Below, piece after piece: positions 1 through 25,200 of a DNA stretch of 58,897 nt; position 1 is the stretch's first letter, and the number at the start of each line of letters is the position of its first letter. Below the pieces are notes generated by a model that was given only the letters and a program-made list of their open reading frames with translations, was not told where the DNA came from and did no database searches. This stretch comes from a virus (lineage: Duplodnaviria; Caudoviricetes), in IMG/VR virus record IMGVR_UViG_3300042914_000556, positions 1 to 58,897 of that record. One strand, written 5' to 3'. Position numbers and translations under genes: made by a program.

Positions 1-140
1 TGGGGGGTGGTCAGGTCAACTACTATCATCGCCCATGCTTCCTTTCCGAGTTATCCACAGGTTTTGCGTGAATTTTTGGTATATACTTCGTTTGTCGGTT
101 GCAGAAAAACGCGCCGATACAAACTTGATAACTTAGGAGA

Positions 141-659
141 ATGACAATGGCTAAAAAGCAAACGCTGTCCATTTCAAAGTATGTTGCGGAAAAGACAAAC
201 TCCATCCGTGACATTCGCGAATCACTCACTCGCATCAAGCAAAACAAGCAAGCATTCGATGTTGCGTATGCTGCAATTAATCTTGTGGCAAGTGCTGCTC
301 AGTCTGATAACAAGGTTTATTTGTCCGCTTCCCCCGAAGCATATTATCGGTGGGATGGTGGTATCGAAATGTCAGTGTTTGCAAATATTCAACTCGAGCA
401 AGTAACCTCACTCAAGGAAGGGTTAGTACCTACAGTTCTCGAAGTGGCAACTAAGGCAGGTTTCGAATTTGATATCACACAGGATTATGCGTACGAGCAT
501 CATGCGTCACGCGATTTCAAAGCATTTGGGCATTTTGCTGGAGTACGTGTCAGATTGGTAATTACTGCAAGTTTGGCAATGGACGCTGAGAACTGCCGAC
601 GCGTCAAGGTCGGAACCGAAATCAAGGAAGTTGACAAATACGAAATTGTTTGCGATTAA
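141..659 (+). CDS. Hypothetical early protein
   Basis: 172-aa ORF, AGGAG RBS upstream, followed by an intrinsic terminator. Confidence 0.8.
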   Translation: MTMAKKQTLSISKYVAEKTNSIRDIRESLTRIKQNKQAFDVAYAAINLVASAAQSDNKVYLSASPEAYYRWDGGIEMSVFANIQLEQVTSLKEGLVPTVLEVATKAGFEFDITQDYAYEHHASRDFKAFGHFAGVRVRLVITASLAMDAENCRRVKVGTEIKEVDKYEIVCD

Positions 660-664
660 ACAAC

Positions 665-688
665 AAGCCCGCGAAAGCGGGCTTTTTT
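665..688 (+). terminator. Rho-independent terminator
   Basis: AAGCCCGC-GAAA-GCGGGCTT followed by a T tract. Confidence 0.85.
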
Positions 689-809
689 CGTCCAGCCTTA
701 ACTACTATCATCAGTTCTCGTTGACATTACTTTTTTGGCACCATGCGACGCGCGGCGTAACTACTATCATCGACTGTGGTGATAATCCCGTGGGATTAGC
801 GATCTTTGG

Positions 810-837
810 TTGACAAATTACATGGGTGTGATAATAT
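810..837 (+). promoter_or_regulatory. Sigma70-type promoter
   Basis: TTGACA-16 bp-TAATAT upstream of ORF 896. Confidence 0.6.
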
Positions 838-895
838 GTGGGTGTGGTGACAGCACATTGTAATTTTCTTAACTTGTTTACTAAGGAGAAACACC

Positions 896-1528
896 ATGTC
901 CAAAACGACAACAGTTGCCAATACCGAAACTCGCAACGCCGATATCGGGTTACTAATTAAGCAAGCTGGCAAGGCTGCAGATTCAATGTTGCAGAAATGC
1001 AAAGAAGCTGCAAAAAAGGCATCAACGCAATTAAATCCTTCGTTGCCATTAGCGCAACGCATTGAATCGGTTGTTCTTTTGTATACAGAGGATTTCAAGC
1101 AAGCCGGACATAACGTCAAAGCATTATTCAAGGATGCACTAACGCTACATGCTGCAGCGCAAACTCCGGTGTCGGTTGAGGTTATCGGCAAAGACGGCAA
1201 AAAAGCGGAAGAGCAAACTACTGCGGAAAATGCAGCAAGCTTGCCAAAGCATGCAATGCGCGAAGCTGCAAAACAGGTAAGAGAAGCGCATGGCATGGCA
1301 CGTAAGCCAGCGGCTAAAAAGCCAGCGGCTGAAGTTACCAAAACGGAAACTGCTAAGCCTGATGTCAAAACGGAAAGTGACCAATTTTCCGAATGGCTTG
1401 GTCAGATTGACGATTATCTAAAAGACAGTGTTTTTCACCAGCGCATTGTTGCTCACTTGATCAGCTTAGGTTATAACTTAGGCAAGGCAGCGACAGGCCG
1501 CGTAGTGCAAGGCAAGGCTGCAGCATAA
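896..1528 (+). CDS. Hypothetical Ala/Lys-rich early protein
   Basis: 210-aa ORF, AAGGAG RBS, own promoter and terminator. Confidence 0.8.
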   Translation: MSKTTTVANTETRNADIGLLIKQAGKAADSMLQKCKEAAKKASTQLNPSLPLAQRIESVVLLYTEDFKQAGHNVKALFKDALTLHAAAQTPVSVEVIGKDGKKAEEQTTAENAASLPKHAMREAAKQVREAHGMARKPAAKKPAAEVTKTETAKPDVKTESDQFSEWLGQIDDYLKDSVFHQRIVAHLISLGYNLGKAATGRVVQGKAAA

Positions 1529-1536
1529 CGCTCCCC

Positions 1537-1594
1537 CGCCCGCGAAAGCGGGCGCTTCACCCGTGTTACCTAAAAGGTAACACGGGATTTTTTT
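1537..1594 (+). terminator. Tandem hairpins / intrinsic terminator
   Basis: CGCCCGC-GAAA-GCGGGCG, then CCCGTGTTACC-TAAAA-GGTAACACGGG plus a 7-T tract. Confidence 0.85.
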
Positions 1595-1789
1595 GTCCAG
1601 AAAAAACCTTAATACAATAACTACTATCATCGCACTTCATTACTATCATGAGTTGCCGACGTTGCTTTTTTGATAACGCGCTAATCCCATGGGATTATAC
1701 GAATGAACGAACGAACGACCGTTCGTTATCACTCAAACTTATATGATGCGGCGCAATAAACGAATAACCCTATTCTTGACCAGTTTATA

Positions 1790-2295
1790 GGTATTCTAGA
1801 TTGATAACTATTGAGGATTGCCAATGATCATACGCGAAGTGAACACTATTTTAGATTGGAAAAATGACCCCAATCTACAAGTTAAACAAATATGTTGTCG
1901 ATGGTTTACGTAAGTGCCTGATTCTGCAGGATTGTTGCAACACAACATAGTTTAAAAAGTTGCTATATAAATAAATTAGTCTTTAGATTGGAAAAATATA
2001 AGACGAAAATTTCCAAACTGCATTTATTCCCTTGCTGCAACAGCCTGACTCTCTCAATCTAAAATTCCCCCCAAGAAATTTCTCTCTCTTACCCAAAAAC
2101 CAAACTAATTGACTAAAGTCATAAATTTCAATAACTTGCGCGCGCCCGCCAATCTAAAATTGCATCTAAAGCAACACAATCTAAACTAATTTCCAATCTA
2201 AAACCGCCCTCCCCTCTCGCTTGACACGTGGCCAACAATATGCTATAATGTTTGTCAAGTCGCAAAACCCCGATCTAAACTTGACCAATCTAATA
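1790..2295. other. AT-rich non-coding region with CAATCTAAA iteron-like repeats; candidate replication origin
   Basis: No long ORF; TTTAGATTGGAAAAAT at 1850 and 1982; CAATCTAAA at 2055, 2150, 2177, 2194 plus variants; IHF-consensus match at 1911-1923. Confidence 0.55.
2221..2249 (+). promoter_or_regulatory. Consensus sigma70 early promoter
   Basis: TTGACA-17 bp-TATAAT with extended -10 TG. Confidence 0.9.
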
Positions 2296-2487
2296 TTGAT
2301 TTTTCAACAACACATTTGCGACCGACCTAATCCCACGGGATTAACCAAAACTGCACTATATTGCATACACTCACATAACGGAGGTGCATAACACGACAGC
2401 CCAAAATAACTGACTCACTCGTAACTAATCCCATGGGATTAGCGGAACCAACGCAACACCTACTCAATTACTTACAAAGGTGACAAC

Positions 2488-2691
2488 ATGATACCAATGC
2501 AATACACAACCCCAACGGAACGCTTTCACGTTTCCAGTTATGGCAATGGGTGGGCGTATGAGATTGTTTGCCAGACCACAGGCGATTCGTTATGGTTTCA
2601 AGACCACGACGCGGACACCGTGAGAAGCGACACCGCAGACTTCACTAATGAAGATGCGATCAACTCATACTTTGAACTACTTTGCGAATAG
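2488..2691 (+). CDS. Hypothetical acidic small protein
   Basis: 67-aa ORF, AAGGTG RBS, downstream of a palindrome. Confidence 0.7.
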   Translation: MIPMQYTTPTERFHVSSYGNGWAYEIVCQTTGDSLWFQDHDADTVRSDTADFTNEDAINSYFELLCE

Positions 2692-2702
2692 GGGAACCTG
2701 CC

Positions 2703-2894
2703 ATGACATTCTTTAACAGCTACCGCACAGGGTTGCGGGCGTTCATCATCAAAACCCGTGACGGACATCCAATCGGTTATCTGTGGGCGCAGTCACGTCT
2801 AGCAGCAATCAACCGAGCAGCACGTCTTGCAGGTGAAGGGGCAACTGCGGAGTTTTTCGGTTTTGACTTCGCCCCATTGATAAAACAAAACTAA
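2703..2894 (+). CDS. Hypothetical protein
   Basis: ATG at 2703 after GGGGA; its TAA stop is the first 3 nt of a palindrome copy. Confidence 0.65.
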   Translation: MTFFNSYRTGLRAFIIKTRDGHPIGYLWAQSRLAAINRAARLAGEGATAEFFGFDFAPLIKQN

Positions 2895-2939
2895 TCCCAT
2901 GGGATTAAACAAACGACTTACTTACTCAGGAGAAACATC

Positions 2940-3827
2940 ATGGCTACAAACCACGACGTTGCACAACGCGCAGTCAACTGGTTGCATCTGAACGGTGACA
3001 TATTCAACGACCCACAGAGCACCATGCCGACCCGCGACGAGTTGCTGGAATATCCCATCAACCAATTAAACGTGCGGCACTACGCCGAGCGCATGGCGCA
3101 GGCCAAACTCAACAACGTACGCAAACTGGCAACAAAGACGTTCGGTGTATACCAAGTGCATGATAAGCACAGGAAGCAGATATTTACTGAATCCGGCGGT
3201 GTGTTCTGGCCGGTGGTTGTGGTGCAGAGTTATAACGCCAAGATTGCCAACATAGTTATCAATATGTACACACGCAAAGTCGAGCTATGGTTGACCCAGC
3301 ATTGGTACAGCAGCACGACCGACCGACACATGAGCAAAGTACGTTCAGCGTTCCTGCATGCAACGAGGTACAACAACGACACCACAGGCACAACCCTGTA
3401 CCGTGATGCAGAGATATACGAGACTTACGCCGTGGAAACCCAGACAGACCGAGTATCTTCGGCCACGTTGCGCGCACACATCGAGATAACTAGAACAAAA
3501 GACATCTTACACACGGCGATCAATCCCAAAGTGCATGAGCCAACGCGCAGGGGGGCGGTCACTGCAACGTCTTGGCGGCTGCAGACGCTGCGCAGGCACT
3601 TGGCCTACGACACACCGTACGACGATGGGCTTTTTACGACACACCACGTTACATTTTTCCCAACATCGCCGACCGGGGGGAAACTGCGCATGGATGCACT
3701 GCAGGAGATCGACGCGATGCTTGCGTTCACGACACGGCTGACGCAGACTGATGCCAACCCCGTGCCCATCGCAGACTTGCGGGCGCAGGTGGAAGCGTAC
3801 TTCGCACTGGAGGGCAACCATGGATGA
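2940..3827 (+). CDS. Hypothetical protein
   Basis: 295-aa ORF, AGGAG RBS. Confidence 0.8.
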   Translation: MATNHDVAQRAVNWLHLNGDIFNDPQSTMPTRDELLEYPINQLNVRHYAERMAQAKLNNVRKLATKTFGVYQVHDKHRKQIFTESGGVFWPVVVVQSYNAKIANIVINMYTRKVELWLTQHWYSSTTDRHMSKVRSAFLHATRYNNDTTGTTLYRDAEIYETYAVETQTDRVSSATLRAHIEITRTKDILHTAINPKVHEPTRRGAVTATSWRLQTLRRHLAYDTPYDDGLFTTHHVTFFPTSPTGGKLRMDALQEIDAMLAFTTRLTQTDANPVPIADLRAQVEAYFALEGNHG

Positions 3828-3906
3828 GCACGACTGGATAGGGGTGTTTTGCGGTATCGTGCTGGCAGGACTATTTGTCCTGCTGTACGGCGGGATTTTT
3901 CACTGA
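3820..3906 (+). CDS. Small membrane peptide (28 aa, MDEHDWIGVFCGIVLAGLFVLLYGGIFH)
   Basis: Translated by hand; GGAGG RBS; fills the gap between genes; single hydrophobic helix. Confidence 0.6.
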   Translation: MDEHDWIGVFCGIVLAGLFVLLYGGIFH

Positions 3907-3921
3907 CATACGGAGATCATC

Positions 3922-4239
3922 ATGACCATGAGAAGCATCGAAGCGCAGCGCGAGTACGAGGAAGAGTCACGCGACGAGTTCAACGCAGAGGTGGAGCAGC
4001 TAGTGCTAAACATAAGCCACGTGCTGCATGACAAAGAGTTATCAGTCTGCCTAGCGTCGCTCGCCGCTGTGATGGTGACCGTTGCCAAACAGCTACCACT
4101 GAACGACGACGAGGTTAATCCCACGGGATTAATTGCCGACCTAGATAATTTCATCGACCCACGGGAGAACTGCATGCTGGCGGTGCTGTCCGCAGCATGG
4201 GATAGCAACGTGATAACGCCCACCCTGAACTTACAGTGA
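3922..4239 (+). CDS. Hypothetical protein
   Basis: 105-aa ORF, GGAG RBS; contains an internal palindrome copy. Confidence 0.7.
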   Translation: MTMRSIEAQREYEEESRDEFNAEVEQLVLNISHVLHDKELSVCLASLAAVMVTVAKQLPLNDDEVNPTGLIADLDNFIDPRENCMLAVLSAAWDSNVITPTLNLQ

Positions 4240-4246
4240 GGAAACC

Positions 4247-4813
4247 ATGAACCACATATTACATACCACGACGTTTGTACACCCAATAACTGAACGGGAA
4301 TATACCGTGAAGATCACCCGTGATGACTGCTACGGCGCGCCGCACGACGAGCATGACGGGCATGGGGTGGTGGTGCGGCTAGACTTCGACCTCGACAACT
4401 ATGACCCCACCGAGGACGAACGCCCCGACGAGGAGAAGATGCGCATGGCGCTGTATCGCAAACTCGGGCCGTCACTCCATACATGGGATCACATGTACTA
4501 CGACTACATCGGGTCAATCCAGAGAGCCATCAGCGAATGGGGCTGCACCATGGCTGACGCACCTGCTGCTGTCGAGCAGGACTACAGATACCTGCGCGGG
4601 TGGTATCAGGGCGAGTGGGAGTGGTGCACCATCGAGGCGACGACCATCGTGGGCGGGGAGAAATTTACCAACGCCATCAGTGGGTACGAGAGCACCATCA
4701 TCCATGACCCCGACCAACTGCACGACGTGCTGCGTGACGTTACCCACGACATCGAGCACCAGATAAAACACAAGTACTACGCAGGGCAACTGGAGCTAGC
4801 CTTTTACGCTTGA
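4247..4813 (+). CDS. Hypothetical acidic phage protein
   Basis: 188-aa ORF, GAGG RBS. Confidence 0.8.
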   Translation: MNHILHTTTFVHPITEREYTVKITRDDCYGAPHDEHDGHGVVVRLDFDLDNYDPTEDERPDEEKMRMALYRKLGPSLHTWDHMYYDYIGSIQRAISEWGCTMADAPAAVEQDYRYLRGWYQGEWEWCTIEATTIVGGEKFTNAISGYESTIIHDPDQLHDVLRDVTHDIEHQIKHKYYAGQLELAFYA

Positions 4814-4838
4814 CAAACTACGGGTAATATAGTATAAT
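4810..4838 (+). promoter_or_regulatory. Consensus sigma70 promoter
   Basis: TTGACA-17 bp-TATAAT. Confidence 0.9.
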
Positions 4839-4932
4839 GTTGTTAATGGCTGATAGACACAGCCCAGTGACGTAGCAACCGCAGCACTAATCCCATGGGA
4901 TTAACCAAACTCATTTACTTACGGAGGACATC

Positions 4933-5814
4933 ATGAGTATCAAAGATCACGCATTGCTTGTGTCGTTGACGGTGAACAAACCGCAGATGACGCAGAAGGA
5001 TGACAAAGCGACAACAGACGCCGAGCTAGCCAACAACGCGCACGGTGCTGGGCAATACCGCAAGGATTTATATCCCAAGCATTTGGTGCAGCCCATACTG
5101 ACCGTGGAGAGCGCAGCCCGTGCATACATCGAGTCAAGTACGTACATGTGGAGTCGTGGACAATACCTGCTACCAACAACGCGGTTCATGGCGGTGGCCG
5201 ACCGACTGTCCAAATTCGAGGTGGAGTTCAACCAGTGCGTCACAGCGTTCCTGAACAACTGGGCGAACGTCATGACACAGGCACAGCAGTCACAAGGCGC
5301 GCTGTTTGACCCCAACGCGTACCCAGACCTGACCAAACTGAAAGAAGCGTTCCGGTTCCGTGTCATCTACACACCAGTAACAGATGCAGGTGATTTCCGT
5401 GTCCAGTTGCAAGAGGATGAGCTGACCCTGCTGCGCCAACAGACTGAAGCGGCGGTGCAAGAGTCCATGACGGCCATACTGAAAGAACCACTCGCACGAC
5501 TGCGCGAAGCGTTGTCAAAGTTACACGAGGTTGCGGGCAGGGCTGACCGTACGGTGCTCAACAAGCGCACAGGTGTGGAGGAAGTGCGGCCACCGATTTT
5601 CCGTGACTCGGTGTGTGAGAACGTCATCGACGAGATCGCACTGCTGCATGACTTCGCGGCCATGCTACCGGATAACATACTGCAGGTTGCCCAGACGGTG
5701 ACTAATGTATTGCCACGCCCACAGGAGTTACGCGACAACCCGGAGAAGCGAGACATCGTGCGCAAGCAAACCGATGCGCTGCTGTCCGTCATCGACACCA
5801 TGCTGGAGGATTGA
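4933..5814 (+). CDS. DUF3150-like helical protein, probable partner of the AAA/vWA pair
   Basis: 293 aa; resembles the family usually found beside phage AAA_5 and DUF2201 genes; family call by recognition only. Confidence 0.55.
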   Translation: MSIKDHALLVSLTVNKPQMTQKDDKATTDAELANNAHGAGQYRKDLYPKHLVQPILTVESAARAYIESSTYMWSRGQYLLPTTRFMAVADRLSKFEVEFNQCVTAFLNNWANVMTQAQQSQGALFDPNAYPDLTKLKEAFRFRVIYTPVTDAGDFRVQLQEDELTLLRQQTEAAVQESMTAILKEPLARLREALSKLHEVAGRADRTVLNKRTGVEEVRPPIFRDSVCENVIDEIALLHDFAAMLPDNILQVAQTVTNVLPRPQELRDNPEKRDIVRKQTDALLSVIDTMLED

Positions 5815-6042
5815 ATGCATCCGAACAAACTCAACGACTCAGGCTACGCCATGATCGAACAGTGCGACCGCGTTGTGCTGCCTGTCGAGGTTGCTATGCA
5901 GGTGTTCACTTTGCTATGTCAGGGCGATAGGGTATCCTACGACTGGCAGACCAAGACGTACCGGTATGACCGTGAGTATCAGCCCACACTGAAGATGATG
6001 AGCATTAAAGATTACGCAACACTGTCCATCGCAGAAGAGTAG
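5815..6042 (+). CDS. Hypothetical protein
   Basis: 75-aa ORF abutting the upstream stop. Confidence 0.65.
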   Translation: MHPNKLNDSGYAMIEQCDRVVLPVEVAMQVFTLLCQGDRVSYDWQTKTYRYDREYQPTLKMMSIKDYATLSIAEE

Positions 6043-6104
6043 TACCAAGCTAATCCCATGGGATTAGTCACACAACCAAACTTGTTAACTTAAGGAGATT
6101 TACC

Positions 6105-7109
6105 ATGCGTATCCAACACGTCACCCCTATCCTCGTCAAGCGTTACATGAACGCCAACACACGCAAGCGCACCGTGTTTTTGCGTGGGCCATCGGGTATT
6201 GGCAAGTCTGAGGTTGTCTTTCAGACCAGCGAGTTACTCGCCGAGCACATTCCCAACTGGCAGGGGGTCATTGATCTACGCTTGGCACAGATGGAGCCCA
6301 CTGACCTGCGCGGTGTGCCGTCGGTTGTCGAGGGGCGTACCGTGATGAACCGGCCTGACTATCTGCCATCCGAGGGTGCGGGCATTCTGTTTCTCGACGA
6401 GATCACCTCAGCACCACCGTCAATCCAAGCGGCGGCGTATCAGCTAGTGCTCACACCAGAGGACTACGGTATCCCTGACACATGGATGGTCATCGCTGCG
6501 GGCAACCGCAAGACTGACCGAGGTGTGACGTACAACATCGCAGCACCGCTGCAGAATCGTATGTGCGACATCGAGGTATCTACTACGCTGGATGACTTCA
6601 CCAACCATGCTGTCAAGTACATTCGCCCAGAGATTCTGTCGTTCCTGCGCGACCGCCCTGACCTGCTGCACAAGTTCGAGCCGACCGGTGATATCAAACC
6701 GTTCCCATCGCCACGCTCATGGTTCGCTGTGTCGCACACACTTGACCTCGACCTGCCAACGCAAGACCGTGTGGAGCTGATCAAGGGTGACATCGGCGAG
6801 GAAGCAGCACTCATATTCGAGACGCACCTGCGTGTGTACGAGACAATGCCGCGCCTTGACGACATCCTCAGTGGCAAAGATGTACCAGTGCCGAAGGAAC
6901 TCAACGTGCGCTATTGCGTAGCGATGGGTCTTGCTACCCGTTTGTCTGCTGATAACTTCGACAAGGCGTGGAATTTCCTTGAGAAGATGCCCGGAGATAT
7001 TCAGACGCTGACCATCAAGCTAGCGTACAAGCGTGACAAGTCACTGACTAGCAGCCCTGCGTATACCAAGTGGGCGGTTGCCAACCAAGCAGCATTCTCA
7101 CGCGCATGA
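6105..7109 (+). CDS. MoxR-like AAA+ ATPase (AAA_5)
   Basis: Walker A GPSGIGKS, Walker B ILFLDE, sensor AAGN, PLQNR arginine finger, PSPRSW motif. Confidence 0.9.
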   Translation: MRIQHVTPILVKRYMNANTRKRTVFLRGPSGIGKSEVVFQTSELLAEHIPNWQGVIDLRLAQMEPTDLRGVPSVVEGRTVMNRPDYLPSEGAGILFLDEITSAPPSIQAAAYQLVLTPEDYGIPDTWMVIAAGNRKTDRGVTYNIAAPLQNRMCDIEVSTTLDDFTNHAVKYIRPEILSFLRDRPDLLHKFEPTGDIKPFPSPRSWFAVSHTLDLDLPTQDRVELIKGDIGEEAALIFETHLRVYETMPRLDDILSGKDVPVPKELNVRYCVAMGLATRLSADNFDKAWNFLEKMPGDIQTLTIKLAYKRDKSLTSSPAYTKWAVANQAAFSRA

Positions 7110-7435
7110 GATCGATAGGCACACATAACGGCGTAGCGCCTGTCTTGGAATGGGAATACGCTGACCGTGACAATGTGCTGCATACATCCAACACGCTGTG
7201 TGCCACGATTGTGTGGCGCAAGGAATCATGGGGGCCGAATGGTACACAACGCAGAGCAGTGCGCGCAGCGCCATTCGCCTACATACGCAGCGTGGGATAT
7301 AACCCCGATGGATTGTTGTTCACCACGGGTAAGTATCTGGTAACTAGTACATCGTTCGACGCAATGCGTGAGTTCGACAGCATCGAGGATGCCAAGACCT
7401 ACGTGGAATCTATATTTGCAATGGAGACAACATGA
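7106..7435 (+). CDS. Hypothetical protein
   Basis: ATGA overlap with the ATPase stop; C-terminal FDSIEDAKTYVESI. Confidence 0.7.
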   Translation: MRSIGTHNGVAPVLEWEYADRDNVLHTSNTLCATIVWRKESWGPNGTQRRAVRAAPFAYIRSVGYNPDGLLFTTGKYLVTSTSFDAMREFDSIEDAKTYVESIFAMETT

Positions 7436-7647
7436 GCACACTTACATGGTTTGAAAACTTCGACGGCGATGCGTGGATAGGCCACGTACCACCTGTAGAG
7501 AATGATGTGTACGGTATCGTGCGCAAGCTACGACAGCCCGGGGGATACATTGCCATCATCAACCGCAGCCTTGACGTAGAGTTCTTCGAGTCACTGGAGG
7601 AAGCCAAACTTTACATCGAGTCCATTCATAGTTTAGAATCAAGCTAA
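7432..7647 (+). CDS. Hypothetical protein, C-terminus related to the upstream ORF
   Basis: ATGA overlap; FESLEEAKLYIESI; stop codon lies inside a palindrome. Confidence 0.7.
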   Translation: MSTLTWFENFDGDAWIGHVPPVENDVYGIVRKLRQPGGYIAIINRSLDVEFFESLEEAKLYIESIHSLESS

Positions 7648-7688
7648 TCCCATGGGATTAACCCTACTCATTTACTTACGGAGGTTTT

Positions 7689-8846
7689 ATGTCATCACAT
7701 GAGAAGCGCATCGATCTTGCATACAGCAAGCTAGGTCTACGCGAGCCATTCATCGCTGCAGTTATGACACGCGTCAAGCGTGAGATCACCACGTCTATAC
7801 CCACTGCAGCCACCAACGGTAGCGTGTGCAAGTACAACCCTGACTTCATGGACAAGTGGGATGACGAGCAGTTGTTCGGCCTTGTGCTGCACGAGTCATG
7901 TCACGTTGTTCTTATGCACATGTGGCGCAGAGACGGGCGTGACCCATCGCTGTGGAACTACGCCAACGACGCGATCATCAACGCGTACATCAAGTCACGC
8001 GGGTACAAGCTACCCGATGGCGGTGTGCATGTGAACTGGGTACGCGACGAGCACTCATCCGAGTATGTGTACGACAAACTCAAGAAGCAGCAAGATCAAG
8101 AGCCACAGCGCGGTAAGGGTGGTAAGGGTGACGGCGATGGCGACGACGATGCACCACAATCTCCTGCCGGTGGGTTCGACGGTAGCGGTGACTTGGAAGA
8201 TGCCGTTGACGAGGCGACACGCACTGACATGGAAGCGACCATCATTGCTGCTGCACAGATGGCGAAAGACTGCGGGCATGGGTCTGCGCTCATCGACCGT
8301 GTGCTCGACAACGTGGGCAAGTCCAACGTACGCTGGCAAGATGTTACTCGCTCGATGATGACTGAGAGTGCTGCTGCTGACTACACGTACCTACGCCCAT
8401 CACGGCGCTTCATCGGTGCAGGGTTGTATCTGCCATCGCTACGCACTGACGCGCTCGGTGGTCTTGCCATTGGCTTCGACACATCAGGTTCGATGGGGCC
8501 ACGTGAGTGCAACCAGATCGCAGCCGAGCTACAAACTATCATCAATGACCTGCAGCCCGCGTTCGTCGAGGTTGTGTATTGCGACAGCAGCGTGACGCAC
8601 GTCGAGCGGTTCGAGCGCGACGATGAGCTTGTACTGCACCCGAAGGGTGGCGGCGGCACACGGTTCAAACCTGTGTTCGATCACTTCGCTGACAGCGGTG
8701 AGCACTACTGCGGCATGATCTTTTTCACTGACATGGAAGGCGACCTCGATGAGTGCGACGAGCCAGAGTACCCAGTGATATGGGCTGACATCGGCAGATC
8801 ACACCCAGACGCACCATTCGGTACGCGTGTCGAGGTAGCGTTATGA
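7689..8846 (+). CDS. DUF2201-type metallopeptidase-like + vWA domain protein
   Basis: HESCH (HExxH), NYANDAIIN, acidic linker, MIDAS DTSGS, GGGGT, FFTD. Confidence 0.9.
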   Translation: MSSHEKRIDLAYSKLGLREPFIAAVMTRVKREITTSIPTAATNGSVCKYNPDFMDKWDDEQLFGLVLHESCHVVLMHMWRRDGRDPSLWNYANDAIINAYIKSRGYKLPDGGVHVNWVRDEHSSEYVYDKLKKQQDQEPQRGKGGKGDGDGDDDAPQSPAGGFDGSGDLEDAVDEATRTDMEATIIAAAQMAKDCGHGSALIDRVLDNVGKSNVRWQDVTRSMMTESAAADYTYLRPSRRFIGAGLYLPSLRTDALGGLAIGFDTSGSMGPRECNQIAAELQTIINDLQPAFVEVVYCDSSVTHVERFERDDELVLHPKGGGGTRFKPVFDHFADSGEHYCGMIFFTDMEGDLDECDEPEYPVIWADIGRSHPDAPFGTRVEVAL

Positions 8847-8870
8847 TTTATTCAACAACTGGAGAGTCTT

Positions 8871-9149
8871 ATGGCGACAAATGAACGCGAGATACTGAAC
8901 CGACTTGTTCGTATTGAAAGTAAACTAGTGCGCGGGTTCGAGGAACTGGGCGTTAACATCGACATTGAATCTGACTGGATTACAGTTGATGATGCGACAC
9001 GCACGGTGTACATTTCTACGCTCGGGCGGTCGCTTACTGTGATGTTAAGTGACATGGTGCGCTTAGGCGCGAAACAAATTGGTAAAGACTACGAGATTGT
9101 TCACAAGGGCACTAACGTCGGTGTGATTAACTTTAGGCCAACAACCTAA
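8871..9149 (+). CDS. Hypothetical protein
   Basis: 92 aa, GGAG RBS; stop codon lies inside a palindrome. Confidence 0.75.
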   Translation: MATNEREILNRLVRIESKLVRGFEELGVNIDIESDWITVDDATRTVYISTLGRSLTVMLSDMVRLGAKQIGKDYEIVHKGTNVGVINFRPTT

Positions 9150-9181
9150 TCCCATGGGATTAACTTATTTACGGAGAAATC

Positions 9182-9415
9182 ATGAGACTTGTAGCCGTTG
9201 CCAATTTACTCAAACAAAGCAAGAGTGTGCTTACTAAAATCTTTGCCAACCCGTCGGCGTACGTTCTTGCTGAGCAAGAGTTGTACGACGCACGACGATA
9301 CCTGCTGATGAACCAGTCCGCTGCGGATTATCACCTGCAGATGACTGTGTTCTACCAGAACTCGATTGATCGACTAGAGAAGTATCTAGAAAAACAGAGA
9401 GGAACCAAGCTGTGA
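9182..9415 (+). CDS. Hypothetical protein
   Basis: 77 aa, GGAG RBS. Confidence 0.7.
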   Translation: MRLVAVANLLKQSKSVLTKIFANPSAYVLAEQELYDARRYLLMNQSAADYHLQMTVFYQNSIDRLEKYLEKQRGTKL

Positions 9416-9621
9416 ACGTCAAAGATGAAGCAAACAAGATGGCAGATCGTCTACGTGAGTACCCACGTGGCGAAGAAGACTTAGACACTGCTACGATGCT
9501 AATCAAACTTGCTGATGTGTACACGGTGGCACGTGAGCTTGCTTACGCTAAGTCGCATGAGCACAGGAACGCTACGTATCAAGCGTTGGTTGACTTAATA
9601 AAAGGCAAACCTGTAGACTGA
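9412..9621 (+). CDS. Hypothetical protein
   Basis: GTGA overlap, 69 aa. Confidence 0.7.
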   Translation: MNVKDEANKMADRLREYPRGEEDLDTATMLIKLADVYTVARELAYAKSHEHRNATYQALVDLIKGKPVD

Positions 9622-9728
9622 TGGAACTCTATAACTTGATTACTTTCGCTGGTGGTGTGTTGGTTGGTATAGGTGTGACATTGTTGATCACCTGTGCCGC
9701 CTTCGCCTACTGGATATTGAGGGATTAA
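9621..9728 (+). CDS. Small membrane peptide (35 aa)
   Basis: Translated by hand: MELYNLITFAGGVLVGIGVTLLITCAAFAYWILRD; TGATG coupling. Confidence 0.6.
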   Translation: MELYNLITFAGGVLVGIGVTLLITCAAFAYWILRD

Positions 9729-9730
9729 CT

Positions 9731-9946
9731 ATGAACTTACTTGACGCGATCATTAAAGAATTCGAATTAAAGAACGACGCATACCTCGCGAAGAAGTTGG
9801 GGGTTATGCCGTCACGCATTAGCAAGATGCGGCACGGGAGACTGAGCGTTACTGACTCATTCATATTGGTGGTGTACGACAAGACCGGCTGGTCGATTGA
9901 ACGCATCCGTGAAGAGATCAAGAAAGGGGAGGAGTCACTGCTATGA
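9731..9946 (+). CDS. Cro/XRE-like HTH DNA-binding protein
   Basis: DAYLAKKLGVMPSRISKMRHG fits an HTH pattern. Confidence 0.8.
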   Translation: MNLLDAIIKEFELKNDAYLAKKLGVMPSRISKMRHGRLSVTDSFILVVYDKTGWSIERIREEIKKGEESLL

Positions 9947-10122
9947 ACGATACTAAATTCTGCACGAGCTGCCAGACAACCCAGCCACTTGCTACGGGCG
10001 AGTTCAAACAAACCAAGAGCATCCGTCGCTGGATATGCAGGGGTTGTCTAGACCACAAGTACGAGAGCATCTACAAAAACAGGAACCCACGCCCTGCGCA
10101 TGCACCGAGAGGTTCGTTATGA
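9943..10122 (+). CDS. Small zinc-finger protein (59 aa)
   Basis: Translated by hand; CTSC...CRGC; ATGA coupling at both ends; GGAGG RBS. Confidence 0.65.
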   Translation: MNDTKFCTSCQTTQPLATGEFKQTKSIRRWICRGCLDHKYESIYKNRNPRPAHAPRGSL

Positions 10123-10328
10123 CTAGAGATGACATTATCCGTATGGCGCAGCAAACCGGCTGGGACTTTGGCTGGGAAATGACGGTCGAGCAGGTTTGCG
10201 AGTTTGCCAACCTAGTCGCAGCAGCGGAGCGCGAGGCGTGTGCTGAGGTATGCGAACTGATGTATGACTATGGGTGGTTAGATGCAAAAAGGTGTGCAAG
10301 GGAAATCCGCGCAAGGGGAGAGGTATGA
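10119..10328 (+). CDS. Hypothetical phage protein (EREACA motif family)
   Basis: MTRDDIIRMA...AAAEREACAEVC. Confidence 0.75.
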   Translation: MTRDDIIRMAQQTGWDFGWEMTVEQVCEFANLVAAAEREACAEVCELMYDYGWLDAKRCAREIRARGEV

Positions 10329-10423
10329 ATTACCCGTTAGGTATGGTGCTGTTTGTAATCGGACTTGCTTGCTGGTCTTTCTTTATGGGGTTTTTGTACG
10401 GGATAAATTATGACAGAGGATAA
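10325..10423 (+). CDS. Small membrane peptide (32 aa)
   Basis: Translated by hand: MNYPLGMVLFVIGLACWSFFMGFLYGINYDRG; ATGA overlap. Confidence 0.5.
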   Translation: MNYPLGMVLFVIGLACWSFFMGFLYGINYDRG

Positions 10424-10751
10424 CGCAGAAGTAATGCCAAATATAGATTACATATATTCGGCGGTGATAGCGGACAGTGAGGCACTAGAAGAGGCAAAGA
10501 TGACGTTAGAAGTCATTAAGAAAACTGATCCGGGTGTCTACGATGAAATGATTAACGACACGCTTTCACTAATTCGCAAAGCACTGAGCAGTTCTATCCT
10601 TAGTGTTGTCGATAGAATGGTCAAAGTAGAAGTAGAAATGGAGCGCGAGGCGTGTGCTGCGTTGTGCGACAAGATATCTGATGAGGATGGGTTCGAAGGC
10701 GGCTACGCAAACCGTTGCGCGTTCGCTATCCGCGAGAGAGGTGCGCCATGA
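10410..10751 (+). CDS. Hypothetical phage protein (EREACA motif)
   Basis: MEREACAALC...IRERG; start uncertain. Confidence 0.7.
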   Translation: MTEDNAEVMPNIDYIYSAVIADSEALEEAKMTLEVIKKTDPGVYDEMINDTLSLIRKALSSSILSVVDRMVKVEVEMEREACAALCDKISDEDGFEGGYANRCAFAIRERGAP

Positions 10752-11227
10752 CTGACCGAGAACTAATGCAGCAAGCGTTGGATGCGCTGGTAGAAATACA
10801 TCCGGGCAACATGACACCAATGGCAGAAGAATCGTGGAACAAAGCAATCGAAGCACTCCGCGCCCGACTAGCGCAGCCGTTACCTGAAAAATCCAAAGGC
10901 GCGTTAAGTCATGAAGAAAACAAGAGGCACAACAAAAAGATTCTGGACAAGTTCTATGAGGAGAACGCGCATCTTTATAAAGCGCAGCCAGAGCAAGAGC
11001 CGGTGGCGTGGATTTATTCTCACAAAGGTCAAAAAATCGTATCAATGAATTATGTTGCTGGTGTTCGTGCTATCCCGCTCTATACCGCCCCACCACAGCG
11101 CGAATGGAAAGGGCTGACGGATGAGGAAATGCGGTGTTTTGTTGATGATTTCTTGTCACCAGAAAAAAGCGCCCGTGAGGTGTTTAACGCCATCGAAGCC
11201 AAGCTGAAGGAGAAGAACAGTGGCTAA
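10748..11227 (+). CDS. Hypothetical phage protein
   Basis: MTDRELMQQALDAL...EPVAW...PLYTAPP...GLTDEE...AIEAKLKEKN. Confidence 0.75.
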   Translation: MTDRELMQQALDALVEIHPGNMTPMAEESWNKAIEALRARLAQPLPEKSKGALSHEENKRHNKKILDKFYEENAHLYKAQPEQEPVAWIYSHKGQKIVSMNYVAGVRAIPLYTAPPQREWKGLTDEEMRCFVDDFLSPEKSAREVFNAIEAKLKEKNSG

Positions 11228-11429
11228 ATTACCTTACACAATTACCATCTGCCCAGACGAGCCGAACCCTAAACAGTTCACGGCATTGACCCCCGCTATT
11301 GTTCGAGCCTTACGTTACACAAATGACTTAACGATAGACCAAAGACAGCACGTTTATCCGACAGCGCCACAAGCGATAACGCAGATTAACTGCCATAAAG
11401 ATAAACCGCAAGGAGAGAACAATGACTGA
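11220..11429 (+). CDS. Hypothetical protein
   Basis: 69 aa, GTG start, GGAG RBS. Confidence 0.65.
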   Translation: MAKLPYTITICPDEPNPKQFTALTPAIVRALRYTNDLTIDQRQHVYPTAPQAITQINCHKDKPQGENND

Positions 11430-11685
11430 CCGAGAGCTAATGAAAATGGCGAACCGTATTGAGGCACTGGCATTTGAAATGAAAGCGCCAAACGCCCACA
11501 CACCACAATTTGTCATGCTTGCAAATGAAATCCGCGCTCGCGCTCGACTAGCGCAGCCTGAACGCGAATGGCAAGGGCTGACGGATGAGGAGATGCACGA
11601 ATGTGCAGGTGAATATCCTTGGACACCAACAGGATTGAAGTGTTGCAGAGCCATCGAAGCCAAGCTGAAGGAGAAGAACACATGA
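11422..11685 (+). CDS. Hypothetical protein, paralog of 10748-11227
   Basis: Shares the MTDRELM, WxGLTDEEM and AIEAKLKEKN blocks. Confidence 0.75.
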   Translation: MTDRELMKMANRIEALAFEMKAPNAHTPQFVMLANEIRARARLAQPEREWQGLTDEEMHECAGEYPWTPTGLKCCRAIEAKLKEKNT

Positions 11686-11798
11686 GTGACCAGCAGATGT
11701 ACGTATTGGCAGGGTTAACGTGTTTAGTGCCGCATTTCCATCCTCGTGTGTCTTTGGTCCTCGGCGTGATGTTTTTATGTTTGGGGTTAATTGTATGA
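11682..11798 (+). CDS. Small hydrophobic peptide (38 aa)
   Basis: Translated by hand; ATGA overlaps at both ends. Confidence 0.55.
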   Translation: MSDQQMYVLAGLTCLVPHFHPRVSLVLGVMFLCLGLIV

Positions 11799-12016
11799 GA
11801 TGCCCAGTGTGTAATTCCAGATCGACAGTCTTGGACACGCGCCAATTAAAATCTTACGTTCGAAGACGACACACTTGCGACAGTTGCCAAGCTAGATTTA
11901 CGACGCATGAGAAGGTTGTTGATACAGGCCCTCTCAGAGCAGGGCGACGTACACCGGAGCACATGGCAGAGATGAGAGAGAAATCGAACAGATGGGGAAG
12001 AGATGAACTGTCCTGA
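11795..12016 (+). CDS. NrdR-like N-terminal zinc-ribbon protein
   Basis: MRCPVC...VLDTR...VRRRHTCDSCQARFTTHE matches the NrdR Zn ribbon; no ATP cone. Confidence 0.8.
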   Translation: MRCPVCNSRSTVLDTRQLKSYVRRRHTCDSCQARFTTHEKVVDTGPLRAGRRTPEHMAEMREKSNRWGRDELS

Positions 12017-21710: not shown

Positions 21711-21821
21711 CTATTTTCCCTTCGCCTTCATCATGCACATGCCCATCTTGGCGCACTTAGCTGGGTTGGGGCAACCTTTGCAGGGCTTGAACGCTACTGG
21801 TTTAGTGGCTTTAGCTTTCAT
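21711..21821 (-). CDS. Small basic Cys-rich peptide (36 aa)
   Basis: MKAKATKPVAFKPCKGCPNPAKCAKMGMCMMKAKGK; TAATG coupling; AAGGAG RBS. Confidence 0.65.
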   Translation of the reverse strand: MKAKATKPVAFKPCKGCPNPAKCAKMGMCMMKAKGK

Positions 21822-21979
21822 TACTTTCTCCTTGCGGCTCTCATGTTATCCACGAGATTAGGGTAAGGACGGCCAGCTTTCTTGGCCGCTGCTTTGGCTG
21901 AAGCCTTCTTTGCAGGCGACAGTTTCTTTGGCTTGCCCAGAGACTCTGGGCGGGGCTGATCCCATACAGGCTTTTTCAT
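21821..21979 (-). CDS. Small basic protein (52 aa)
   Basis: MKKPVWDQPRP...AAAKKAGRPYPNLVDNMRAARRK. Confidence 0.7.
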   Translation of the reverse strand: MKKPVWDQPRPESLGKPKKLSPAKKASAKAAAKKAGRPYPNLVDNMRAARRK

Positions 21980-21980
21980 A

Positions 21981-22235
21981 TTAGCACTTCCATGCACGAA
22001 GAGATTTATTAATGCGGCTGTTCGGATCGTTAGCGGTTTTCTCGCTCGTTAATTTCTTCTTCATCCCTTTCATTCGGGCACAGAATGAATCACGACGAGG
22101 ACCGCCTTCAGGTTGCGGTGCCTTCAGCCCGGGCTTGCCGGGGTTAGCTGCGTTGTAAGAGGCACGACCCTTAGCGTTCAAACCGCCCTTGGGGTTCTGC
22201 CCTTCCTTGCGTTGCCACGCTGGTGTCTTAGCCAT
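21981..22235 (-). CDS. DUF6321-like small basic phage protein
   Basis: PAWQRKEG...GGLNAKGRASYN...SFCARM...SRINKSLRAWKC. Confidence 0.75.
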   Translation of the reverse strand: MAKTPAWQRKEGQNPKGGLNAKGRASYNAANPGKPGLKAPQPEGGPRRDSFCARMKGMKKKLTSEKTANDPNSRINKSLRAWKC

Positions 22236-25200
22236 TACTGAACGCTCCCATCGTCAAGTTCTTCGTCAAGTTCTTCACCACGTACTTCAGCAATGCGGCG
22301 TTCCATGCGCTCCCGCAAGACTTCCAACTCTTCATCCAACTCGTCGTAGTCAGGGTACCCTTTGCGGTACTCTTCCTTCTTGGCCTTGCGCATAGCGGCC
22401 TTGAAGTCTTTCTCTACGCCCTTGACTACCTTGTCTTGGATAACCATGGACTCGTCAATATCGTAATCATACGCTTTAAGCCCCAGCATCCTAGCAAAAA
22501 CTAAGTTGCTTGGCATAGCACCAGTTTCACCGGCTTTTTCATCAAGAATATCTTTGACCTTAGCCCAATTTTTGCTGGACACCATGGGCGGCATAGCTAG
22601 GTCGTATGCGTACTTGCCGGAGTTAACTAACTTATCCCACTCTGAGTCAGTAGGTTTATGAATCCCCTTGCCTGTATATGGGTCTACACCATAGAGAAGC
22701 CCAGCAGCGGCAGACAGAAACGGCCCACTAGGAGTTAGGGCAGCGGGTATCCATGACTGCCCAGCAGGGCCCATTGGCAATCCTTTAGCTAACGACGCGA
22801 ATGGTATGTAATCGCCTAGCTTGTAGTACACGGGGTTTTGCGCGTCACCGAACGGCAAGCGGATAAACATGTGTGGCCCCATGCCGAAGAACATGCGTTC
22901 ACGCATATACTCAGGGCCAGCTTTGCGGAGTTCTTCGTCGTCATCCCCTGCCATCGCAGCCATCGCCACTTCGATGAAGTAGTACGCAGCGAGAACATTA
23001 GCAATCTTCCATGGCTGATGCAGCGCCATGCGGGCAAGCACTGGAGTAATTGCGTAGGTCCATGACACGAACGGCATTACAGACTGCCGAGCGATCTTTA
23101 CTGCCTTAGCGTCGATGTCGTAATCCAAGAACGCTTTGCGAGCGAACGTACCTGCGGCGCGCAGTTGCTCAGGGGTAGCCGTTGCCGTGCCTTCGAGGTT
23201 CTGCAGGTCACCAGCTTTGGTCAAGAACGCAGCTAGACGGAAGATGTTATCTTCAGCAGCATAGGTTTCTGTTGCTGCGTCGTCGAACTTTTTACCTGCT
23301 TTAGCGGCAAGCTGCACGACCATCTGTGTTTTAGACTTCTCATACCCAGCAAACGCAGAGAGACGTTTCAAGAGCGAAGACTCACCGTCCGCGCCCATGT
23401 TTTTGCCCCATGCGTCGTATAGTGCTTGCTTAACTTCTACGCTGGAGTAGTCACCTAACATCGCGCCAGAGTTAATAAACGCTGACATTAGATCAAGTTC
23501 TGCCTTGCTAAGTTTGCTCGGTGATAATTCATATAGGGCAAAAAGCCGAGCGGCTTTGCCGATGGTAGTCACCGGTATGTCGTGCATCATTGCCAACGTG
23601 ATGTTGGACGCGATGTTTGTGATATGAGTACCGAGGTTATAGATCGTCTTCGACTTCTTAAACCAGCGCATTGTGTTGTTAAACACGCGGTTGTTAATGA
23701 ACGGCTGACGATCCGACATATCCAACAAGGCACTCCATACAGGCCCGGGGATATACTTGCCACCCAGTTCTCCGTAAGTCGGTGTGGCTGGTAACTGCAC
23801 CCATGTACCCGTACGGCGATACATGCCGATGATCTCAGGCGACTTTGCCATACCCTCGGAAACCCGCAGCACTTGATCTTCACGAACAGTGCGGCCAGTA
23901 GCTTCCTTGATGTCATCGAGATTGTTAAACGCCACAGACATGGCACTAGGCTTGCCGCCTTCGTAGCCGTAGGCAGCTAGGTTCTCGAAAATCTTTTTGC
24001 TAGCGTAGTTCACTGCAAGCGCGGACATGGTGTTGCGCATAGCATTGGCTAGATCATCAGCTTTCTTTTCCTCAATGGCTTGCTTAGCCGTCATGCTGGA
24101 CGAGAAACGATAGCCACTGCTTTCGCTGAACTCAGAAATCCACCACTGCCGAGTAGCATCTACCTGATAACCAACAGGCGACTGCCGACCACGGCGCTCG
24201 AACTCACTGACGGACATATAGCCAGCAGGCTCAGGGCCAGTTCCGGGCTTCAAACCTTCACGCTTGAAGACTTGGTAGAACCTGCCATCGAGAATAGGAT
24301 CGCCTTGCTCATTCTTCGACATCCACTCTTGGAAACCTTCGAGCGTCTTTTCACGGCGGTGCTTCAAGCCCATGACGCTAGTCAACTTTGCAGTGCCCAA
24401 TGTGCCACGTGCGATCTGCTCGCTGCGGGTTGCGTATAAAAGCGCTTCAGAGAACTTGTTGTCACGGAAGAAAGCGCGCTCAGATGCAGGTAGTTCATTG
24501 ACATACGCTTTGAACCACGTCAGCACATTATCTGCAGTGCGCTTTAAGACTTCTTGATCTGGTAATGTAGCTAGTGCGTTCTTATCACCATCCATATATC
24601 GCATAAGTGCGAGTACGTCGGCAGCAGGACGATTAGCGACGAAGTTCGCTAGCCTGTCCATTTGCATATAGCCAACGCTTTTGTTGACTTTGAAATCTTC
24701 GATCTGCTGCTTGGTGTATTCGCCAGCGCTGAAAGTCGAGTTGATAAGAATCAAAAAGCGCTCAGCCGCAGGGAAGTCTTTGCGGATCATGTCAGCGAGC
24801 TTGGCCGCGCTTTTGGATACTTTCTCAGCAACCCGCTTGTCCCAGCCCATAGCGTCAAATAGGAAACGAGAACTGACCGCATCAGGGGCGATTCGCTTAG
24901 TAAACCCGCGCAAATCTTGCGGCGTGATGCCCGCAGCTTGTTCAGTGCCTTTGTCGCTGGATACTGCAGCTTCAAGAATGTTGCCGCTGTCTGCTGAGAA
25001 TGTGCCTTTGTTAAATGGCGACTTCAGTTGGTTCGATGAGTAAACAGCAAGGTTCTTACGACCACCTTCTTTGACGTAGAAACCATCGAAGTCCAGCGAC
25101 TTGATTGCGTCCTGCACCACATCAGACTCGATAGTCGGCCAGTCACCTTCTTTGAGAAGCAGCGCCCGTCCGGGGTCTTTGCTCTTAATTTTCTGAACTA

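Follow-up and report, generated by a model that had tools for sequence, protein, structure and literature searches.

What does a phage use a perfect 16-bp palindrome for, when ten copies of it punctuate the early genes and the rest of the genome has none? The question is raised by the window studied here, 58,897 bases that make up one whole IMG/VR record (IMGVR_UViG_3300042914_000556, completeness estimate 98%) and hold the near-complete, 58.9-kb genome of a podophage. A preliminary description of this DNA had pointed out the palindrome, TAATCCCRYGGGATTA, and had offered four roles for it: parS-like loading sites, sites where a protein binds the early DNA, junctions between exchangeable gene cassettes, and RNA hairpins. 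Our comparisons favour the reading that the palindromes are dispersed operators on double-stranded DNA, used by a lineage-specific dimeric regulator of the early operon, with cassette exchange as a side effect. We give this reading a probability of roughly 45%.

The palindrome in the window and in related phages

All ten copies were recovered by an exact pattern scan, with starts at 783, 1682, 2328, 2426, 2892, 4116, 4888, 6051, 7645 and 9147, and none occurred in 100 shuffles. Allowing any centre and up to two mismatches returned the same 10 sites and no extra one in the 58,897 bases, all of them within the first 9.2 kb, and the remaining 49 kb is thus free of copies even under these looser terms. 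Each copy forms a perfect 7+2+7 dyad with invariant arms; seven copies have AT at the centre, two AC and one GT, as had been described. Nine of the ten lie outside open reading frames (ORFs) or on a stop codon. The three copies said to supply the TAA stop of the upstream gene do so (2892, 7645 and 9147, for ORFs ending at 2894, 7647 and 9149), and the one said to lie inside a coding sequence is that at 4116. The distance from the end of the motif to the next start codon is 19-46 nt for six of the ten (2426, 2892, 4888, 6051, 7645 and 9147), in agreement with the 20-50 nt given before for most copies; the remaining gaps are 97 (783), 144 (2328) and 115 nt (4116), and copy 1682 has no downstream gene. 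Each gene-preceding copy heads one to three tightly packed genes, and a conserved leader and a GGAG-type ribosome-binding site come next. The earlier claim that no copy overlaps a -35 or -10 box holds for most copies and has to be amended for 1682, which overlaps a weak, 9/12 promoter-like match at 1670-1698; a further small correction is that the -10 hexamer of a 10/12 match ends 5 nt short of the start of 7645. The copies are arranged as follows.

783-798, unstranded: copy 1, centre GT; 101 nt past the terminator at 665-684 and 11 nt ahead of the -35 of the promoter at 810-837
1682-1697, unstranded: copy 2, centre AT; past the terminator at 1560-1586, at the left edge of a non-coding, repeat-rich region of about 0.8 kb
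2328-2343, unstranded: copy 3, centre AC; in a leader, about 79 nt past the -10 of the promoter at 2221-2249 (about 72 nt into the leader)
2426-2441, unstranded: copy 4, centre AT; 46 nt ahead of ORF 2488-2691 and about 170 nt into the leader of the promoter at 2221
2892-2907, unstranded: copy 5, intercistronic; ends ORF 2682-2894 with its TAA; 32 nt ahead of ORF 2940-3827
4116-4131, unstranded: copy 6, centre AC; within ORF 3922-4239, which has its own GGAG and ATG
4888-4903, unstranded: copy 7; 50 nt past the -10 of the promoter at 4810-4838 (about 43 nt into the leader) and 29 nt ahead of the DUF3150 gene 4933-5814
6051-6066, unstranded: copy 8, intercistronic; 38 nt ahead of the AAA_5 ATPase gene 6105-7109
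7645-7660, unstranded: copy 9; ends ORF 7432-7647 with its TAA, lies 28 nt ahead of the DUF2201 gene 7689-8846, and starts 5 nt past the -10 of the promoter match at 7610-7639, that is, at about +1
9147-9162, unstranded: copy 10, the last, intercistronic; ends the conserved 92-aa gene 8871-9149 with its TAA; 19 nt ahead of ORF 9182-9415

The ORF at 3922-4239 also has an in-frame ATG at 4174, after GGGAG and 42 nt past the intragenic copy, which could serve as an internal start or have arisen by chance.

A scan of 2.9 million viral contigs found the motif in at least 119 stretches, and 47 of the 80 matches listed had two sites or more. Five related complete genomes carry 10, 9, 6, 9 and 11 exact copies, clustered in 8-14 kb of the early region, and a reversed control pattern gave no match in them. 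When loci were fetched by their ATPase protein, the exact motif was present in 46 of the 47 with an ATPase identity of at least 61%; at 36-42% identity it was found in none of 25 loci, and no other repeated palindrome was found in them either. The idea of a cis-element system confined to the early region therefore holds, and extends to a large clade; with 6-11 clustered copies per genome, the motif is neither evenly spread nor missing in relatives. The flanking coding DNA of the relatives is 64-75% identical to the window in blastn alignments, in which the 14 arm bases are unchanged. By simple arithmetic, 14 given bases would survive in one genome pair at about 70% identity with a chance below 1%. 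The copies ahead of the DUF3150, ATPase and DUF2201 genes are kept in five to six of six genomes compared. Since the arms are unchanged where the flanking DNA is only about 70% identical, and since the copies at these three genes are kept, the alignments point to strong purifying selection on the palindrome sequence itself.

Among the 80 matches listed from prokaryote genomes, 79 are single sites, scattered over unrelated phyla. The palindrome is not a host-chromosome motif, judging from the share of matches listed with more than one site, 1/80 in prokaryotes against 47/80 in viral contigs. The sole multi-copy match listed (L339, contig JBBAPZ010000024.1, from a metagenome-assembled genome labelled Candidatus Sericytochromatia) is 45 kb long and has its 3 copies within 8 kb; probably it belongs to a phage and was binned with that assembly, and as a hint to the host it is weak at best. 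It was also possible to observe, in at least 13 related loci (e.g. L130:1599 and L134:16775), a one-mismatch copy at one orthologous place inside the DNA polymerase gene; the copy is exact in genome G002 and missing from the polymerase gene of the window, and it may be due to coincidence in the coding sequence or be an additional functional site. A literature search with the motif sequence found no earlier report of the palindrome which, as far as such a search can tell, is unreported.

In one sublineage both arms have changed. The locus L174 (ATPase identity 74%) lacks the canonical motif and has five TATTCCC-RY-GGGAATA copies in the same places. The same variant was found in the fragments G006 (8/8 copies), G008 (5), G009 (4), G010 (4) and G007 (6/8). 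The switch replaces A3:T14 by T3:A14 (TAATCCC to TATTCCC) in both arms and at all copies of the sublineage, which is nested among canonical genomes, with 74% ATPase identity to the window as compared to 61-73% for the canonical loci L173, L175, L177 and L178. A control scan with the variant motif over all viral contigs gave 97 stretches, with a single site in 72 of the 80 matches listed. A concerted switch at every site implies a trans-acting reader that changed together with its sites, and that reads their sequence and not just their shape. It also excludes that any stable hairpin would do.

The positions between and around the arms are constrained in a different way. The centre is purine-pyrimidine (R-Y) in 285 of 314 copies from the first 119 loci. 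We oriented 226 unique sites by their downstream gene; position 8 is A in 159 and G in 56 of them (R 95%), position 9 is C in 106 and T in 112 (Y 96%), the base at -1 is C in 144 and T in 57 (Y 89%), and the base at +17 is A in 151 and G in 45 (R 87%). Invariant arms with an R-Y centre and Y/R flanks are the pattern of a duplex site bound by a dimer, which would read the centre partly through the shape of the DNA.

We made comparisons of gene maps in six genomes. A backbone of the 210-aa gene, the 188-aa gene, DUF3150, the ATPase, DUF2201 and the 92-aa gene is conserved, lineage-specific genes are interleaved between the backbone genes, and the palindromes are found at the unit boundaries in all six. 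The clearest difference is seen in G004 and G002, which have the order promoter, site, 123-aa gene, site, DUF3150, as compared to promoter, site, DUF3150 in the window, with outer flanks that can be aligned. Blocks of blastn homology open at 4887 and 7644, each one base ahead of a copy. The sites thus mark the ends of insertions and deletions (indels), as seen from the gene-plus-site indel bounded by two copies and from the homology blocks that start at sites. The expectation that gene content swaps exactly at the palindromes was borne out in this one clear case, and nothing is exchanged at the DUF3150, ATPase and DUF2201 sites.

The proposed regulator and its rivals

The operator reading can be put as follows. 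Host RNA polymerase would transcribe the early region from near-consensus sigma-70 promoters, and a site heads almost every early unit, at about +1, in the leader, between cistrons or, for the first conserved gene, just 5' of the -35. One two-fold symmetric (dimeric) sequence-specific regulator would dock at all of these sites, with a specificity set in each phage lineage, and filling them would gate the entire early operon at once. The most likely effect would be a shut-off by promoter occlusion and elongation roadblocks as the regulator accumulates. The identical 16 bases around every unit would double as short homology patches for the gain and loss of early cassettes. We infer the binding, its DNA level and repression as the sign of the regulation. 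This is the direction of the earlier proposal that a protein binds the early DNA; for the other half of that proposal, protection of the first-injected DNA, we found nothing that shows it.

The main rival, which we consider possible and clearly less probable, places the element in the mRNA: each early leader would carry at its 5' edge a hairpin of 6 pairs with a C-R-Y-G loop, read by an RNA-binding protein or a nuclease of phage or host, and this element would affect transcript stability, the processing of each unit or the translation of the next gene. The position of the sites fits well with this. In 158 of 274 non-redundant sites, one side but not the other leads within 90 nt to a Shine-Dalgarno sequence and a start codon that opens an ORF of 40 aa or more, at a median distance to the start codon of 25.5 nt; the A/T/C-rich conserved leader follows the motif, and the element has a polarity. 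At 7645, and at the same site in relatives, the -10 ends 5 nt upstream, so the transcript would start with the hairpin. In the ompA and T7 gene 10 leaders, 5' ends are protected by such a 5'-terminal arrangement, and in the T7 leader the 5' hairpin is followed by an enhancer-like leader and the Shine-Dalgarno sequence. The concerted change of both arms also preserves the pairing. However, the predicted fold is weak, with 6-8 pairs (6 with a 4-nt loop) and no larger structure, it is missing from the minimum-energy fold in 5 of the 10 native contexts, and the z-scores of the ten contexts range from -1.9 to +0.9, none of them significant. The stems are invariant and the loop varies, the opposite of most hairpin-protein systems, where specificity lies in the loop. 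The flanks do not extend the stem, as the -1/+17 pair is a C..A mismatch in 105 of the 226 oriented sites. Two of the eight copies in G007 are hybrids with one canonical and one variant arm, which as RNA would have an A:A or T:T mismatch in the middle of the stem, but on a duplex would simply be mixed half-sites. Orienting the loci by the ATPase gene gave 206 exact copies at unique sites and 48 variants; 46 of the variants are changed at one position of a single arm and one at two positions within one arm, with no compensated case among the 48. The first 119 loci have 40 single and 6 double changes, and two of the six doubles are compensated in the Watson-Crick sense. Changes that break a pair (C:A, position 12) number 24 and those that keep a wobble (position 5) number 2, or 12 and 2 if one orthologous site in the DNA polymerase gene is left out. 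Some copies are also placed in spacers that lead from a terminator to a promoter. Thirteen of 266 unique sites are found 0-25 nt upstream of a promoter matching in at least 10/12 positions, 7 of the 13 also follow a terminator, and the arrangement terminator, palindrome, promoter ahead of the 210-aa gene, seen at copy 783, recurs in the distant L175 and L178. Copies just upstream of promoters would fall outside the downstream mRNA, and for the intragenic copy at 4116 a function in the mRNA would not be expected either. The hybrid arms, the uncompensated variants and the promoter-upstream copies favour a duplex site, and the hairpin proposed earlier is retained as the chief competitor of the operators.

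The search for the reader protein gave no clear candidate. The helix-turn-helix (HTH) ORF at 9731-9946 (phrog_638, 1e-7) is the only HTH-like ORF and had been proposed as the binder, but it has a match in 0 of 21 long related loci and cannot be a conserved reader. Six early proteins (210 aa, 188 aa, DUF3150, AAA_5, DUF2201 and 92 aa) are kept in 17-21 of the 21 loci. It is conceivable, if speculative, that the 210-aa protein, which has an invariant Lys/Arg-rich segment, is a candidate partner of the palindrome. Its C-terminal domain was considered as the determinant of specificity and ruled out; it differs in the variant lineage but also in the canonical L175 and L178. The family of the 92-aa protein has 197 relatives, one of which is named in its source as a predicted RNA-binding protein with PUA domain. 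The structure model does not support this name, which counts against the mRNA element. When the canonical and variant lineages were compared, no conserved early protein was disproportionately diverged in the variant lineage.

Several observations weigh against the operators. No DNA-binding protein that travels with the motif was found, and the six conserved early proteins belong to no nucleic-acid-binding family. The models of the 210-aa protein (pLDDT 75.6) and the 92-aa protein (pLDDT 84.9) had no significant fold match in PDB, with best E-values of 1.8 and 0.28. The oriented sites are polar, with the centre AC in 93 and GT in 46, and with the flanking C (144) to the left and A (151) to the right; to this comes the excess of changes at position 12 (24, or 12 without the polymerase-gene site) over its mirror position 5 (2). 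A polarity is not needed by a symmetric dimer site. A sense-strand RNA hairpin does not predict the excess either, because position 12 gives C:A and position 5 a harmless U:G; it would be predicted by a hairpin of the template strand, or by a protein that relies more on the gene-distal half-site. Furthermore, 180 of the 266 sites have no strong promoter or terminator nearby and simply lie ahead of a ribosome-binding site, which fits a role in the mRNA equally well. For a lytic phage that represses by roadblocks at a symmetric site, we also know of no direct precedent.

The reader could also be encoded by the host. A host transcription factor might read the same duplex, in which case the two classes of motif would mirror two groups of hosts; this agrees with the lack of a phage-encoded binder and of an unusually diverged early protein in the variant lineage. 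We regard it as unlikely, as 79 of the 80 prokaryote matches listed are singletons over unrelated phyla, though a host regulon could have been missed. That recombination is the primary function, with the palindromes as crossover sites of an integron-like or homing-like cassette system, appears quite unlikely. The 123-aa gene-plus-site indel of G004 and G002, the homology blocks from 4887 and 7644 and the variable genes between copies in six genomes would all suit it, and as an evolutionary pattern the cassette junctions of the preliminary description stand. No recombinase was found: a search of the genome for tyrosine recombinases (PF00589) gave only a 13.8-bit match with 4 stops (control positive in 14/14 genomes), and one for serine recombinases (PF00239, Resolvase) gave no match (control positive in 12/14 genomes). 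Homology over 16 bases yields such indels anyway, and the sites at DUF3150, ATPase and DUF2201 are kept in 5-6 of 6 genomes with no exchange there, so we read cassette exchange as a by-product of the 16 identical bases that flank every unit. Very unlikely in our judgement is a single-stranded hairpin of the template strand, which would serve an unrecognised RNA polymerase of the phage as an N4-type promoter, or would be a signal for priming or replication. The layout is N4-like (early and replication genes rightward, late genes leftward, the gene of a giant virion protein at the distal end of the late block), the DUF2201 protein has matches in N4-like phages, and the position-12 changes would be a T:G wobble on the template strand. 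The N4 promoter hairpin has 5-7 pairs and a 3-nt, purine-centred loop, and an even palindrome allows a loop of 2 or 4 nt only. Two 12/12 sigma-70 promoters drive the region, and the Shine-Dalgarno sequence starts 0-1 nt past the motif in 32 of the 158 sites oriented by it, which leaves no room for a downstream start site. The giant protein (2328 aa, 22235-29221, minus strand) is an ART-PolyVal and LPD38-like protein and matches no PDB chain by sequence at E<=1, in a chain library that presumably includes the N4 virion polymerase. The T7-like polymerase domain PF00940 had no match in the genome, and its control was likewise without a match in any genome. The giant protein is polyvalent, and in these sequence searches there is no evidence for a virion polymerase. 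Least probable of all, and hardly to be expected, are loading sites for a ParB-family clamp that spreads and silences, as at parS or KorB operators. Multiple identical 16-bp palindromes at variable promoter distances recall the KorB operators of RK2, as these appear in passages of PMC11790492. A six-frame search of the genome for ParB_N (PF02195) gave 0 matches (control positive in 11/14 genomes), which speaks against the parS-like sites first proposed, and no partition ATPase was recognised among the proteins scanned.

A wider view, which we hold to be doubtful, is that one lineage-specific factor, with a fold not yet tied to nucleic-acid binding, gates the early programme, while the sites form a recombinase-free grid for the exchange of host-takeover or anti-defence cassettes among co-infecting phages of a very abundant freshwater clade. 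A lineage that changed its dyad from TAATCCC to TATTCCC would then be cut off from the others in its regulation as well as in recombination.

Early transcription signals and the rest of the genome

The promoters, terminators and first conserved gene to which the palindromes are related are listed here.

665-684, plus strand: intrinsic-terminator-like hairpin and T run, upstream of copy 1
810-837, plus strand: sigma-70-type promoter match, 10/12, for the conserved 210-aa early gene 896-1528
896-1528, plus strand: conserved early gene, 210 aa, no family; follows a palindrome-promoter pair in relatives
1560-1586, plus strand: intrinsic-terminator-like hairpin of 12 pairs and T run, upstream of copy 2
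2221-2249, plus strand: sigma-70 consensus promoter, match score 12/12 with TG
4810-4838, plus strand: sigma-70 consensus promoter, match score 12/12
7610-7639, plus strand: sigma-70-type promoter, match score 10/12

An exact 12-mer promoter with correct spacing has a probability of about 6e-8 per position, and two were found within 12 kb, beyond what chance would give, which implies that the early genes are transcribed by the host RNA polymerase. None of the ten palindromes was among the 15 terminator-like sites found, and they are not intrinsic terminators. An extended -10 or an activator site was also considered for the palindrome and rejected, as the frequency matrix shows no -10-like signal 5' of the 226 oriented sites and the Shine-Dalgarno sequence abuts the motif in 32/158. 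The A/T/C-rich conserved leader, ACTTGTTTACTTA-like, is found just 5' of GGAG at 110-140, 865-895 and 6080-6104 and after most palindromes; we take it to resemble the "epsilon" translational enhancer of the T7 gene 10 leader. Since the same leader is present without a palindrome before the genes at 141 and 896, it is a separate element.

A second repeated motif, AACTACTATCATC, has 4 exact copies on the plus strand (18-30, 700-712, 759-771 and 1619-1631), all within the first 1.7 kb; a similar but shorter sequence is found near 1639. Upstream of each copy is a terminator or the end of the genome, downstream of it a palindrome, and the motif or its complement adjoins palindromes in many related contigs. 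Small shares of the early region were found in three metatranscriptome runs and one possible RNA run, with contigs only from relatives (90-99% alike). These contigs span the copies at 2328, 2426 and 7645 with at least 31 letters on either side; they are blind to RNA ends and may stem from DNA carry-over, and no site at which many molecules start or stop was listed.

The left end of the window is low in G+C, with an average of 0.436 over the first 2 kb. At 51-59, close to the left end of the record, lies TTATCCACA, which we take to be a consensus DnaA box. The stretch at 1700-2300, about 0.8 kb of non-coding DNA with many short AATCTAAA-type repeats, is a candidate replication origin; an inverted repeat, GAACGAACGAACG/CGTTCGTT, adjoins copy 1682, and tandem repeats beside one palindrome were also seen in the relatives L006 and L025.

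The genes of the window run rightward up to about 21.4 kb and leftward starting at 22.2 kb. In the rightward block the small early genes are followed by DUF3150, the AAA_5 ATPase and the DUF2201 VWA/metallopeptidase, and further on by a family A DNA polymerase, a PD-(D/E)XK nuclease, an SNF2-type helicase and a primase. A 98-aa protein with an NrdR-like or Ogr-Delta-like zinc ribbon (PF22811, 3.9e-11) at 11720-12016, plus strand, is a possible activator of later genes. The leftward block holds the 2328-aa ART-PolyVal protein, tail proteins, the major head protein, the portal and the large terminase. The 2328-aa protein has its ADP-ribosyltransferase domain (ART-PolyVal) at residues 1315-1403 and an LPD38-like C-terminal third, and it is probably injected; two very basic small ORFs, 21821-21997 and 21981-22235, adjoin its gene. 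The phage looks lytic, with no repressor or integrase evident.

By its portal, the phage is closest among cultured phages to Rhizobium phages of the RHph_TM3_14A type (34% identity), with which it has a common gene order, and next to HMO-2011-type marine phages; the DUF2201 protein finds its matches in N4-like phages. At the DNA level, a megablast of 1-12000 and 20000-44000 found no useful cultured relative among 50,697 phage records, and a 52-nt query of motif and leader, run in distant mode, had no useful match in the same records. RHph_TM3_14A (L124, MN988472, bases 1-50000) has a dispersed palindrome of its own, GTTACC-N6-GGTAAC, with 15 exact copies and near copies in 50 kb. These are found in both strand blocks, about half of them within annotated genes, and several have GGAGG embedded right next to a start codon, on its upstream side. 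Dispersed palindromes, each specific to its lineage, may be more widespread in this phage group. Related contigs number in the hundreds, and the early region itself was found in freshwater metagenomes (lake, river and other), in 15 runs from about 10 studies, each with at least half of the sampled words.

Significance and comparison with known systems

One easily scanned 16-bp signal marks the early programme of an abundant freshwater clade. It delimits the early units and flags accessory cassettes, which probably carry host-takeover genes, and it makes a clean case for studying how early genes under host polymerase are co-ordinated, or shut off, in a lytic phage. The natural switch between two classes of specificity is a built-in experiment towards the reader protein and, if the partner has a new fold, the two would be a compact orthogonal pair of operator and regulator.

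Some likenesses to known systems are partial. The RNase III sites of T7 are intercistronic hairpins of an early operon transcribed by host polymerase, with imperfect stems of about 20 bp; the palindrome, in contrast, has a short stem, and it is the sequence rather than the shape that is conserved. The conserved inverted repeat (CIR) of Streptomyces phage phiC31 is a 17-bp inverted repeat with many sites in the early region, at variable positions relative to promoters, and is bound by a phage repressor. That phage is a temperate actinophage with a known repressor, unlike the present one, which looks lytic and has no evident repressor. Integron attC arrays have repeat-bounded cassettes in common with the palindromes, but a recombinase was not found here. 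In T4-type phages, the PeSL elements are described in passages of PMC2839356 and PMC4122927 as repeated regulatory motifs that flank variable genes in early or hyperplastic regions and take part in modular shuffling. They are composites of an early promoter and a terminator-like stem-loop with a loose consensus, whereas the palindrome is an invariant 16-bp dyad, with a promoter of at least 10/12 within 120 nt upstream at only 58 of 266 sites.

Two systems come closer. The KorB operators (OB) of plasmid RK2 are identical scattered palindromes, placed at variable distances from promoters and used for global co-ordinated repression, in the portion of PMC11790492 that deals with them. A palindromic site of about 13-16 bp, present several times, is a feature shared with parS and the KorB operators. 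KorB is a ParB-family CTPase clamp of a plasmid and its sites are not tied to gene starts; here there is no ParB_N, and the sites are found at gene starts. The stoperators of cluster A mycobacteriophages occur in more than 20 copies, at promoters and in short intergenic spaces, often at gene boundaries, and are thought to block both initiation and elongation (from parts of PMC9283540); in sections of PMC6550527, repressor and site specificities are described as co-evolving between lineages. The palindromes are like the stoperators (L5 gp71-type) in that many copies of one site are found in short intergenic spaces and promoters. A stoperator, however, is an asymmetric 13-mer, bound by a monomer and dependent on orientation, and the palindrome is a perfect dyad in which only the flanks and the centre are polar. 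Stoperators also act genome-wide in lysogenic immunity, whereas the palindromes are confined to the early region of a phage in which we found no conserved HTH repressor and no integrase. It appears from these comparisons that the palindromes would work most like stoperators and KorB operators, yet fail the defining features of both.

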